Sequence record: MZ375256.1
Direction: 5' to 3' (one strand)
DNA from: Escherichia phage T7
Length of the DNA: 37,111 nucleotides
The notes beneath the pieces were generated by a model, which was not told the origin of the DNA, searched no databases, and saw only the letters and a program-made list of their open reading frames with translations. This document shows positions 7,022 through 36,819 of the stretch, piece after piece. The position numbers and the translations under genes are program-made. Every line of letters starts with the position of its first letter. Positions within the stretch are counted from its first letter, which is position 1.

Positions 7022-7044
7022 TTTTACGACTCACTAAAGGAGGT
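7022..7044 (+). promoter_or_regulatory. T7 promoter phi1.5, 5' end altered at the gene 1.4 deletion junction
   Basis: tttacgactcactaaaggaggta: positions -17 to -15 read ttt instead of taa. Confidence 0.7.
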
Positions 7045-7427: not shown

Positions 7428-8009
7428 TGGGACTGTTAGATGGTGAAGCCTGGGAAAAAGAAAACCCGCCAGTACAAGCAACTGGGTGTATAGCTTGCTT
7501 AGAGAAAGATGACCGTTATCCACACACCTGTAACAAAGGAGCTAACGATATGACCGAACGTGAACAAGAGATGATCATTAAGTTGATAGACAATAATGAA
7601 GGTCGCCCAGATGATTTGAATGGCTGCGGTATTCTCTGCTCCAATGTCCCTTGCCACCTCTGCCCCGCAAATAACGATCAAAAGATAACCTTAGGTGAAA
7701 TCCGAGCGATGGACCCACGTAAACCACATCTGAATAAACCTGAGGTAACTCCTACAGATGACCAGCCTTCCGCTGAGACAATCGAAGGTGTCACTAAGCC
7801 TTCCCACTACATGCTGTTTGACGACATTGAGGCTATCGAAGTGATTGCTCGTTCAATGACCGTTGAGCAGTTCAAGGGATACTGCTTCGGTAACATCTTA
7901 AAGTACAGACTACGTGCTGGTAAGAAGTCAGAGTTAGCGTACTTAGAGAAAGACCTAGCGAAAGCAGACTTCTATAAAGAACTCTTTGAGAAACATAAGG
8001 ATAAATGTT

Positions 8010-10422: not shown

Positions 10423-12234
<1,812 letters not shown>

Positions 12235-12302
12235 CAGGATTCTTGACAGTTGTTTCATATGAAGAGATTGTTAAGTCACGATAATCAATAGGAGAAATCA
12301 AT

Positions 12303-14417
12303 ATGATCGTTTCTGACATCGAAGCTAACGCCCTCTTAGAGAGCGTCACTAAGTTCCACTGCGGGGTTATCTACGACTACTCCACCGCTGAGTACGTAAG
12401 CTACCGTCCGAGTGACTTCGGTGCGTATCTGGATGCGCTGGAAGCCGAGGTTGCACGAGGCGGTCTTATTGTGTTCCACAACGGTCACAAGTATGACGTT
12501 CCTGCATTGACCAAACTGGCAAAGTTGCAATTGAACCGAGAGTTCCACCTTCCTCGTGAGAACTGTATTGACACCCTTGTGTTGTCACGTTTGATTCATT
12601 TCAACCTCAAGGACACCGATATGGGTCTTCTGCGTTCCGGCAAGTTGCCCGGAAAACGCTTTGGGTCTCACGCTTTGGAGGCGTGGGGTTATCGCTTAGG
12701 CGAGATGAAGGGTGAATACAAAGACGACTTTAAGCGTATGCTTGAAGAGCAGGGTGAAGAATACGTTGACGGAATGGAGTGGTGGAACTTCAACGAAGAG
12801 ATGATGGACTATAACGTTCAGGACGTTGTGGTAACTAAAGCTCTCCTTGAGAAGCTACTCTCTGACAAACATTACTTCCCTCCTGAGATTGACTTTACGG
12901 ACGTAGGATACACTACGTTCTGGTCAGAATCCCTTGAGGCCGTTGACATTGAACATCGTGCTGCATGGCTGCTCGCTAAACAAGAGCGCAACGGGTTCCC
13001 GTTTGACACAAAAGCAATCGAAGAGTTGTACGTAGAGTTAGCTGCTCGCCGCTCTGAGTTGCTCCGTAAATTGACCGAAACGTTCGGCTCGTGGTATCAG
13101 CCTAAAGGTGGCACTGAGATGTTCTGCCATCCGCGAACAGGTAAGCCACTACCTAAATACCCTCGCATTAAGACACCTAAAGTTGGTGGTATCTTTAAGA
13201 AGCCTAAGAACAAGGCACAGCGAGAAGGCCGTGAGCCTTGCGAACTTGATACCCGCGAGTACGTTGCTGGTGCTCCTTACACCCCAGTTGAACATGTTGT
13301 GTTTAACCCTTCGTCTCGTGACCACATTCAGAAGAAACTCCAAGAGGCTGGGTGGGTCCCGACCAAGTACACCGATAAGGGTGCTCCTGTGGTGGACGAT
13401 GAGGTACTCGAAGGAGTACGTGTAGATGACCCTGAGAAGCAAGCCGCTATCGACCTCATTAAAGAGTACTTGATGATTCAGAAGCGAATCGGACAGTCTG
13501 CTGAGGGAGACACAGCATGGCTTCGTTATGTTGCTGAGGATGGTAAGATTCATGGTTCTGTTAACCCTAATGGAGCAGTTACGGGTCGTGCGACCCATGC
13601 GTTCCCAAACCTTGCGCAAATTCCGGGTGTACGTTCTCCTTATGGAGAGCAGTGTCGCGCTGCTTTTGGCGCTGAGCACCATTTGGATGGGATAACTGGT
13701 AAGCCTTGGGTTCAGGCTGGCATCGACGCATCCGGTCTTGAGCTACGCTGCTTGGCTCACTTCATGGCTCGCTTTGATAACGGCGAGTACGCTCACGAGA
13801 TTCTTAACGGCGACATCCACACTAAGAACCAGATAGCTGCTGAACTACCTACCCGAGATAACGCTAAGACGTTCATCTATGGGTTCCTCTATGGTGCTGG
13901 TGATGAGAAGATTGGACAGATTGTTGGTGCTGGTAAAGAGCGCGGTAAGGAACTCAAGAAGAAATTCCTTGAGAACACCCCCGCGATTGCAGCACTCCGC
14001 GAGTCTATCCAACAGACACTTGTCGAGTCCTCTCAATGGGTAGCTGGTGAGCAACAAGTCAAGTGGAAACGCCGCTGGATTAAAGGTCTGGATGGTCGTA
14101 AGGTACACGTTCGTAGTCCTCACGCTGCCTTGAATACCCTACTGCAATCTGCTGGTGCTCTCATCTGCAAACTGTGGATTATCAAGACCGAAGAGATGCT
14201 CGTAGAGAAAGGCTTGAAGCATGGCTGGGATGGGGACTTTGCGTACATGGCATGGGTACATGATGAAATCCAAGTAGGCTGCCGTACCGAAGAGATTGCT
14301 CAGGTGGTCATTGAGACCGCACAAGAAGCGATGCGCTGGGTTGGAGACCACTGGAACTTCCGGTGTCTTCTGGATACCGAAGGTAAGATGGGTCCTAATT
14401 GGGCGATTTGCCACTGA
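12303..14417 (+). CDS. 5: DNA polymerase
   Basis: 704-aa ORF, family A polymerase with 3'-5' exonuclease domain. Confidence 0.98.
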
Positions 14418-16139: not shown

Positions 16140-16162
16140 TAATACGACTCACTATAGGGAGA
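16140..16162 (+). promoter_or_regulatory. T7 promoter phi6.5 (class III consensus)
   Basis: taatacgactcactatagggaga; flanked by the R6.5 hairpin arms actcaaggtccc ... ggggcctttacgat. Confidence 0.9.
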
Positions 16163-16475: not shown

Positions 16476-16742
16476 ATGTGTTTCTCACCGAAAATTAAAA
16501 CTCCGAAGATGGATACCAATCAGATTCGAGCCGTTGAGCCAGCGCCTCTGACCCAAGAAGTGTCAAGCGTGGAGTTCGGTGGGTCTTCTGATGAGACGGA
16601 TACCGAGGGCACCGAAGTGTCTGGACGCAAAGGCCTCAAGGTCGAACGTGATGATTCCGTAGCGAAGTCTAAAGCCAGCGGCAATGGCTCCGCTCGTATG
16701 AAATCTTCCATCCGTAAGTCCGCATTTGGAGGTAAGAAGTGA
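16476..16742 (+). CDS. 6.7: Gp6.7 virion protein
   Basis: 88-aa ORF from MCFSPKIKTPK. Confidence 0.85.
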   Translation: MCFSPKIKTPKMDTNQIRAVEPAPLTQEVSSVEFGGSSDETDTEGTEVSGRKGLKVERDDSVAKSKASGNGSARMKSSIRKSAFGGKK

Positions 16743-17143
16743 TGTCTGAGTTCACATGTGTGGAGGCTAAGAGTCGCTTCCGTGCAATCCGGTGGACTGT
16801 GGAACACCTTGGGTTGCCTAAAGGATTCGAAGGACACTTTGTGGGCTACAGCCTCTACGTAGACGAAGTGATGGACATGTCTGGTTGCCGTGAAGAGTAC
16901 ATTCTGGACTCTACCGGAAAACATGTAGCGTACTTCGCGTGGTGCGTAAGCTGTGACATTCACCACAAAGGAGACATTCTGGATGTAACGTCCGTTGTCA
17001 TTAATCCTGAGGCAGACTCTAAGGGCTTACAGCGATTCCTAGCGAAACGCTTTAAGTACCTTGCGGAACTCCACGATTGCGATTGGGTGTCTCGTTGTAA
17101 GCATGAAGGCGAGACAATGCGTGTATACTTTAAGGAGGTATAA
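16742..17143 (+). CDS. 7: Gp7 virion/host-range protein
   Basis: 133-aa ORF. Confidence 0.85.
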   Translation: MSEFTCVEAKSRFRAIRWTVEHLGLPKGFEGHFVGYSLYVDEVMDMSGCREEYILDSTGKHVAYFAWCVSCDIHHKGDILDVTSVVINPEADSKGLQRFLAKRFKYLAELHDCDWVSRCKHEGETMRVYFKEV

Positions 17144-20498: not shown

Positions 20499-20521
20499 TA
20501 ATACGACTCACTATATGGAGA
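20499..20521 (+). promoter_or_regulatory. T7 promoter phi10 with non-consensus +1 (T instead of G)
   Basis: taatacgactcactataTggaga followed by the gene 10 leader accacaacggtttccctctagaaataattttgtttaactttaagaaggagatatacat. Confidence 0.85.
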
Positions 20522-34528: not shown

Positions 34529-34786
34529 ATGCTAGAATTTTTACGTAAGCTAATCCCTTGGGTTCTCGCTGGGATGCTATTCGGGTTAGGATGGCATCTA
34601 GGGTCAGACTCAATGGACGCTAAATGGAAACAGGAGGTACACAATGAGTACGTTAAGAGAGTTGAGCCCAGAAGGGTGACGCATGGATTCGTGCGTTACA
34701 GGATACTATTCGTGAACTGCAACGTAAGTAGGAAATCAAGTAAGGAGGCAATGTGTCTACTCAATCCAATCGTAATGCGCTCGTAG
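34529..34786 (+). pseudogene. 18.5: Truncated and frameshifted i-spanin gene 18.5 (Rz-like); embedded o-spanin gene 18.7 (Rz1-like) reduced to an 11-codon stub at 34644-34679
   Basis: First 46 codons MLEFLRKLIPWVLAGMLFGLGWHLGSDSMDAKWKQEVHNEYVKRVE match gp18.5, then an out-of-frame tail PRRVTHGFVRYRILF... running into gene 19; about 229 bp missing relative to the canonical 143-aa gene. Confidence 0.75.
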
Positions 34787-36771: not shown

Positions 36772-36819
36772 ATGTTCCGCTTATTGTTGAACCTACTGCG
36801 GCATAGAGTCAAGTCCTAA
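36772..36819 (+). pseudogene. 19.5: Gene 19.5 truncated to 15 codons
   Basis: RBS gggaggag then ATG; reads MFRLLLNLLRHRVKS* whereas the canonical gene is about 49 codons; size accounting implies about 189 bp missing here. Confidence 0.5.

Follow-up and report, generated by a model that had tools for sequence, protein, structure and literature searches.

The 68-bp linker between genes 4 and 5 in Escherichia phage T7 record MZ375256.1, whose full 37,111 nucleotides we call the window, is a genuine deletion scar relative to canonical T7. We consider it very likely that the scar arose as an undesigned 1,019-bp deletion between imperfect 13-bp repeats, probably after a Cas9 cut, and that loss of the Cas9 targets was then selected. 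The window is a laboratory genome-reduced T7 of the CiPGr series, and the loss of gp4.3-4.7 in reduced T7 is already published. Both the deletion and the dispensability of the block were thus known, and what is new here is the precise repeat signature together with three junction variants. The features of the window on which the argument draws are, in window coordinates:

10534..12234, + strand, gene 4A primase-helicase; protein identical to wild type
11623..11645 (+1 at 11640), + strand, T7 promoter phi4c, inside gene 4; 29.7 bits, same as wild-type phi4c
11957..12262, + strand, truncated ORF 4.2; 101 aa vs 112 aa
12234..12246, + strand, hybrid repeat copy ACAGG[A/T]TTCTTGA; single copy kept, wild-type copies at 13265-13277 and 14284-14296
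12235..12302, + strand, gene 4–gene 5 linker; wild-type 13266-13277 + 14297-14352
12242..12275, + strand, predicted RNA hairpin in the linker; same hairpin predicted in wild-type RNA
12247..12284, + strand, gene 4.7 remnant; last 38 bp, stop TAA at 12282-12284, without a start codon
12290..12294, + strand, gene 5 ribosome-binding site AGGAG; same as wild type
12303..14417, + strand, gene 5 DNA polymerase, 704 aa; S100F (12601 C>T) and K404T (13513 A>C) vs wild type
16140..16162, + strand, T7 promoter phi6.5, the next downstream; from the promoter matrix scan

Read directly from the sequence, the linker extends from the gene 4 stop codon TGA (12232-12234) to the gene 5 ATG (12303), the two genes having been identified by megablast as primase-helicase and DNA polymerase. 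The same interval measures 1,087 bp (13266-14352) in the NC_001604 annotation, so 1,019 bp are missing from the window, and alignment to NC_001604 places the deletion at wild-type 13278-14296. Sequence comparison with wild-type T7 resolves the linker exactly into NC_001604 13266-13277 (12 bp) followed by 14297-14352 (56 bp), the junction having been placed by hand alignment with an exact sequence check against NC_001604. The deletion therefore removes 94% of the DNA between the essential genes 4 and 5 and leaves both genes untouched. The original prediction had given the 68-bp spacing with exact coordinates and had proposed that about 1 kb of a canonical ~1.09 kb was missing, both in agreement with the alignment. 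Its guess that the junction lay between attcttga and cagttg was also right, as the microhomology check finds the junction in TTCTTGA (12240-12246). Its description of a missing 4.2-4.7 block holds for 4.3, 4.5 and most of 4.7, which are gone, but not for 4.2, most of which overlaps gene 4 and survives, with just its 3' end cut back.

The lost segment comprises the last 49 bp of ORF 4.2, phi4.3, 4.3, 4.5, phi4.7 and most of 4.7. Positions of the lost elements in wild type, from the reference annotation, are:

+1 at wild-type 13341, promoter phi4.3; lost
wild-type 13352-13564, gene 4.3; lost
wild-type 13584-13853, gene 4.5; lost
+1 at wild-type 13915, promoter phi4.7; lost
wild-type 13927-14334, gene 4.7; all but the last 38 bp lost

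At the left edge, ORF 4.2 (wild-type 12988-13326) exchanges its final 16 codons for 5 new ones, so that its first 96 residues are wild type and are followed by a 5-residue tail, translated across the junction, that ends SCFI before the stop. RNA folding predicts a hairpin in the R4.7 region (wild-type 13854-13903, -24.1 kcal/mol), between gene 4.5 and phi4.7, and we take the R4.7 site itself to lie at ~13892 on the Dunn & Studier 1983 map. R4.7 is listed as an RNase III cleavage site (Jack et al. 2019). Phi4.3, phi4.7 and this RNase III site had all been predicted to be missing, and all three fall within the lost 13278-14296. Scanning of the junction region indicated that the deletion generated no new promoter, terminator or RNA structure there: no sigma-70-like sites were found at the junction, and two terminator-like matches, no more than chance would give, fall within genes 4 and 5. 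The hairpin in the linker (12242-12275) was not created by the deletion and leaves the gene 5 ribosome-binding site uncovered. With regard to the genes themselves, 4.2, 4.3, 4.5 and 4.7 were of low essentiality in a genome-wide T7 knockout screen. Both gp4.3 and gp4.5 are toxic upon expression in E. coli, and gp4.5, a Lon-dependent toxin-antitoxin inhibitor, matters more on some clinical hosts.

The provenance of the window is clear from its relatives. It is 99.8-100% identical to the records named 'Mutant Escherichia phage T7 clone T7_###S/L' (MZ375233-294 and OL9647xx), and for the MZ375xxx records this identity spans 25 kb as well as the final 12 kb. None of the records in the phage collection searched aligned with the window along its full length. 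The clones come from the CiPGr work of Yuan, Shi, Jiang & Ma (Nucleic Acids Res 2022, PMC9825161), in which T7 was taken through up to 300 passages (>2,000 phage generations) on E. coli MG1655 that expressed Cas9 and harboured a library of plasmids, every one with a guide and two 50-bp repair arms against one non-essential gene. Those authors class the losses of gp0.3-0.6, gp4.3-4.7 and gp19.5 as undesigned large-fragment losses, probably the result of CRISPR escape (PMC9825161). Whole-genome comparison with wild type finds seven deletions in the window: ~0.4-0.6, 1.4, 3.8, 4.3-4.7, 5.3, part of 18.5/18.7, and 19.5. Three of them are gene-precise with 0 bp of junction overlap, namely 1.4 (wild-type 7608-7763, start to stop codon), 5.3 (16483-16820) and 3.8 (292 bp), whereas the 4.3-4.7 endpoints lie off gene boundaries. 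The published gp4.3-4.7 loss and that of the window show no substantive difference: the phage, the 1.4/3.8/5.3 deletions and the 1,019 bp are the same, and the junction of the window is that of T7_140L and T7_240S. The main text of PMC9825161 uses neither 'direct repeat' nor 'microhomology' and is silent on the flanking repeat and on variant junctions. Cas9 was directed at this interval: in T7_90L a designed deletion takes 195 bp of gene 4.3 (wild-type 13353-13547), and a gp4.7 cassette was tracked by PCR in CiPGr (PMC9825161). Another engineered phage, T7_mini (PP384394, PP384396), likewise lacks 4.3, 4.5, 4.7, phi4.3 and phi4.7 and has gene 5 near gene 4. Independently engineered and deposited as a complete phage genome, T7_mini differs in its 160-bp gene 4–5 spacer, in retaining more of both flanks, and in its joint, which lies away from the native repeat and includes ~20 bp foreign to T7.

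Both ends of the deletion coincide with that native direct repeat. The left wild-type copy, ACAGGATTCTTGA (13265-13277), starts on the third base of the gene 4 TGA, and the right copy, ACAGGTTTCTTGA (14284-14296), ends 56 bp before the gene 5 ATG. In direct orientation the copies match at 12 of 13 positions, with a 7-bp exact core TTCTTGA, so that the near-repeat bracketing the 4.3-4.7 block can be written ACAGGWTTCTTGA. The junction sequence of the window, CAGGATTCTTGACAGTTG, retains one hybrid copy (12234-12246), and the 1,019 bp lost equal the repeat spacing. Because the window has the base of the left copy, A, at 12239, the crossover into the right copy must have fallen within TTCTTGA (12240-12246). 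Exact 7-bp repeats begin at 1.3e-4 of position pairs in the wild-type interval, so the location of both endpoints at a repeat is not a matter of chance. End-joining or illegitimate deletion, for which 0-3 bp of homology would be expected, was rejected given a junction with 7 bp exact and 12/13 overall. The undesigned 19.5 deletion of the same genome has a 9-bp exact repeat, ATAGAGTCA, vs 0 bp at the designed deletions. This 19.5-region deletion (wild-type 39429-39608) keeps one ATAGAGTCA copy, at window 36803-36811, a signature like that of 4.3-4.7.

Homology length alone is insufficient to account for the choice of endpoints. Among the ungapped direct-repeat pairs of the interval, the pair used ranks second and has the widest spacing of all, being the outermost one available. 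The best-ranked pair, formed by the phi4.3 and phi4.7 promoter cores (10-bp exact, 16/17), was unused in the clones inspected, and it is for this reason that we invoke selection for the removal of all targets. Only the widest pair removes all 4.3/4.5/4.7 guide targets in one step, which would explain why it was used rather than the longest repeat.

We hypothesize the following sequence of events. Cas9 would cleave within 4.3, 4.5 or 4.7, the cut ends would be resected by the T7 gene 6 exonuclease, and the exposed single strands would pair at the repeat, perhaps with the assistance of gp2.5. Flap trimming and nick sealing would then leave a single hybrid repeat copy, and the product, without any guide target of the block, would be favoured under continued Cas9 pressure. 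Deletion between short direct repeats is reported for T7 (Studier et al. 1979), as is its stimulation by breaks that fall between the repeats (Kong & Masker 1994). Those deletions, like the one here, reportedly had repeat endpoints, one retained copy and a setting with double-strand breaks between the copies. They differ from the 4.3-4.7 deletion in that the repeat here is imperfect (12/13, 7 exact) and the break would have come from Cas9 rather than from a restriction enzyme as in the earlier T7 work. Our search of the literature turned up no usable account of T7 evading Cas9 through microhomology.

The sibling genomes provide further information on the junction. With a 121-bp junction probe, at least 28 genomes in GenBank were seen to share the 1,019-bp loss, and the probe is 100% identical in MZ375259, 261, 276, 280, 282, 284 and 290. 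Three junction types were found among them:

junction A..C, ACAGGATTCTTGAC; the window, T7_130L, 140L, 180S, 210S, 240S and 270S
junction T..C, ACAGGTTTCTTGAC; T7_70S, six accession-adjacent records and OL964741
junction A..T, ACAGGATTCTTGAT; PV223880-3

These types vary solely at the two sites where the wild-type copies differ, and at each site the base is that of either one copy or the other. Such variants are the expected outcome of pairing along the entire imperfect repeat, and their source would be either differing crossover points or one heteroduplex (with an A·A mismatch at repeat position 6) segregating both. The existence of A- and T-type junctions does not in our view prove that the deletion arose twice, because the A·A heteroduplex of one annealing would segregate both. 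The T type appears in the transfer-70 clone, and the A type in clones of transfer 130 and later; among T-type records the clone name was checked for T7_70S alone, and accession order suggests a 70-110 range for the others. The 'recombinant T7-B' series of 2025 (PV223880-3; PV223880.1 10757-10877) shares the 1,019-bp loss. The sizes of the 1.4 and 5.3 deletions in PV223880 equal the CiPGr designs, which suggests descent from CiPGr stock, and as the two may share stock we do not claim this series as an independent recurrence.

The strongest competitor to Cas9-initiated collapse, which we regard as unlikely though well worth weighing, is replication slippage or copy-choice between the 13-bp repeats without a double-strand break, Cas9 acting only later as a selective agent. 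The junction anatomy is equally compatible with slippage, the >2,000 phage generations of the experiment offered ample opportunity for it, and spontaneous short-repeat deletions have long been known in T7 (Studier et al. 1979). However, Cas9 cutting within the interval was continuous in CiPGr, and breaks between repeats are reported to stimulate such deletions in T7 (Kong & Masker 1994). Further, a single slippage event would yield one junction type, yet three are seen, although repeated events could also give three.

We also considered what the deletion means for transcription of gene 5. A promoter weight matrix built from the 17 annotated T7 promoters was used to scan the window, in which phiOL, 1.1A, 1.1B, 1.3, 1.5, 1.6, 2.5, 3.8 and 4c are retained upstream and 6.5, 9, 10, 13, 17 and OR downstream, each at 25 bits or more. 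From phi4c (11623-11645) to phi6.5 (16140-16162) the scan found no T7 promoter, the top score being 2.4 bits. This re-inspection upholds the earlier statement that the stretch is free of T7 promoter consensus. The accompanying proposal that gene 5 is transcribed wholly by read-through is also correct, phi4c being the last promoter upstream. Such a read-through-only supply of gene 5 is no large departure from wild type, because wild-type T7 has no terminator before Tphi and already contains a promoter-free stretch of similar length, the 4.63 kb from phi4.7 to phi6.5 vs 4.52 kb from phi4c to phi6.5 in the window. In wild type, too, eight class II promoters farther upstream already supply gene 5 by read-through. 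In the work of Jack et al. 2019, class II promoters are modelled as equally strong and the region from 3.8 to 6.5 is without terminators. Compared with the wild-type class II unit (Dunn & Studier 1983 map; Jack et al. 2019), the window shows the same polycistronic read-through with no pre-Tphi terminator, and shares phi4c and phi6.5 as well as, by coordinate offset, R3.8 and R6.5. The wild-type unit differs in having phi4.3, phi4.7, R4.7 and 10 promoters before gene 5, whereas the window is without these elements and has 8.

The number of class II promoters feeding gene 5 would accordingly appear to fall from 10 to 8, and if promoters are equal as in the Jack et al. model, the ratio of gene 5 to gene 4A transcription would drop to 8:7, compared with 10:7 in wild type. 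Loss of R4.7 should place genes 4 and 5 together on a single R3.8-R6.5 mRNA of ~5.7 kb, and under the directional-degradation model of Jack et al. the loss of R4.7 could stabilise the gene 5 message. The loss of two promoters and the loss of R4.7 cleavage could thus pull in opposite directions. An altered gene 5 dosage, as originally suggested, is plausible from the sequence, and its size is probably modest. All genes downstream of the deletion are also 1,019 bp closer to the leading end of the genome.

The replication proteins themselves vary among the clones. In the window the gp4 sequence is wild type and gp5 carries S100F and K404T, two changes that are absent from the parental records and polymorphic across CiPGr clones. 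S100F occurs in 16 records, most with the A-type deletion and three with a different block state. K404T occurs in 35 records, several of which keep 4.5 and 4.7; of the records with higher numbers that were checked (MZ375266-294), almost every one has it, with or without the 4.3-4.7 deletion. We rejected the idea that S100F and K404T are deletion-specific compensation, since K404T is found with the block kept and S100F with another block state. Several later A-type clones have a T>C change (equivalent to window 12202, where the window is wild type) that produces gp4 S557P, and T7_210S has a 1-bp insertion at the same spot that frameshifts the last 10 residues. Both of these changes lie in the acidic gp4 C-terminal tail. 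The gp4 C-terminal tail contacts DNA polymerase. At the other end of the gene, the designed 3.8 deletion (292 bp) leaves 29 nt from the start of 3.8 fused, in frame, with the 4A leader (window 10486-10533), giving a possible 16-residue N-terminal extension on the primase-helicase. GenBank annotation of sibling clones gives gene 4 as a 582-aa ORF (10486-12234), and the native 4A ribosome-binding site and ATG (10534) are kept.

These observations bear on two further readings. In the first, which we judge improbable, selection acted mainly on retuned replication-gene expression or on a shorter genome and not on Cas9 escape. Candidates for such retuning are a changed gene 5:gene 4 ratio, downstream genes that enter the cell sooner, and removal of the toxic gp4.3 or gp4.5, and this reading could draw on the disappearance of two promoters and an RNase III site ahead of gene 5, on the toxicity of gp4.3 and gp4.5 in E. 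coli, and on gp5 S100F and K404T and the gp4 C-terminal tail changes of sibling clones. However, in the absence of Cas9 the fitness of the reduced T7 mutants was below that of wild type, which outcompeted even the best of them, the smallest genome had a burst of 2.1 vs 143, and re-adding 1.5-2.5 kb of neutral DNA left burst size unchanged (PMC9825161). The gp5 changes are also not specific to the deletion, with K404T present in block-retaining clones and S100F in clones of another block state. A bolder reading, in which ACAGGWTTCTTGA is a built-in excision hotspot, 4.3-4.7 a facultative cassette, and a gp5:gp4 shift might drive S100F, K404T and the gp4 tail changes, strikes us as more doubtful still.

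Templating by a plasmid donor, through a designed cassette or PCR-chimeric arms and ordinary homologous recombination, has in our estimation only a very slim chance of being right. The library does hold 50-bp arms for genes of the block. Chimeras are common in oligonucleotide pools. Nevertheless, the authors call the loss undesigned, and the designed deletions have ends that coincide with gene boundaries or fall close to them and show 0 bp of homology at their junctions, whereas here the left end is 12 bp past the gene 4 stop inside ORF 4.2 and the right end is inside 4.7, exactly at the native repeat. One donor would moreover give one junction sequence, contrary to the variants found. Finally, an assembly artefact or a natural T7 variant is effectively ruled out by the same 1,019-bp loss in at least 28 separate assemblies and in population sequencing, by the absence of the junction from natural phage records in the phage collection searched, and by the full length of parental records MZ375233 and MZ375234.

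The window differs from wild type at several other places. At phi10 (20499-20521), the promoter of the major capsid gene, a G>T change at +1 gives TATATGGAGA vs wild-type TATAGGGAGA and lowers the score from 38.6 to 33.8 bits, a change that could reduce capsid-gene transcription. At phiOL (368-390), an A>G change at +1 brings the promoter closer to the class III consensus. The 1.4 deletion takes the first three bases of phi1.5 (7022-7044), replacing TAA with TTT at -17 to -15 and lowering its score from 33.4 to 25.1 bits. The left 1.3 kb (1-1332) has 7 mismatches and 3 small gaps (20 bp lost) vs wild type. Towards the right end, the 18.5/18.7 deletion of ~226 bp (wild-type ~37055-37280; window 34663-34710) truncates the Rz/Rz1-like spanin genes.

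The scar marks the window as an engineered, published T7 derivative and agrees with the known dispensability of 4.3-4.7 on the laboratory host. If the deletion arose by repeat collapse after Cas9 cleavage followed by selection for target loss, as we favour, then Cas9-driven reduction of phage genomes would proceed preferentially by collapse between existing short repeats. Repeat collapses of this kind can take regulatory elements together with genes, here two promoters and an RNase III site. The reduced phage would also lose accessory counter-defence functions, such as that of gp4.5, which appear dispensable on the laboratory host. These considerations are relevant to the design of minimal T7 chassis and to the reading of fitness losses and host-range limits in reduced phages, for example those that may follow from the loss of gp4.5.
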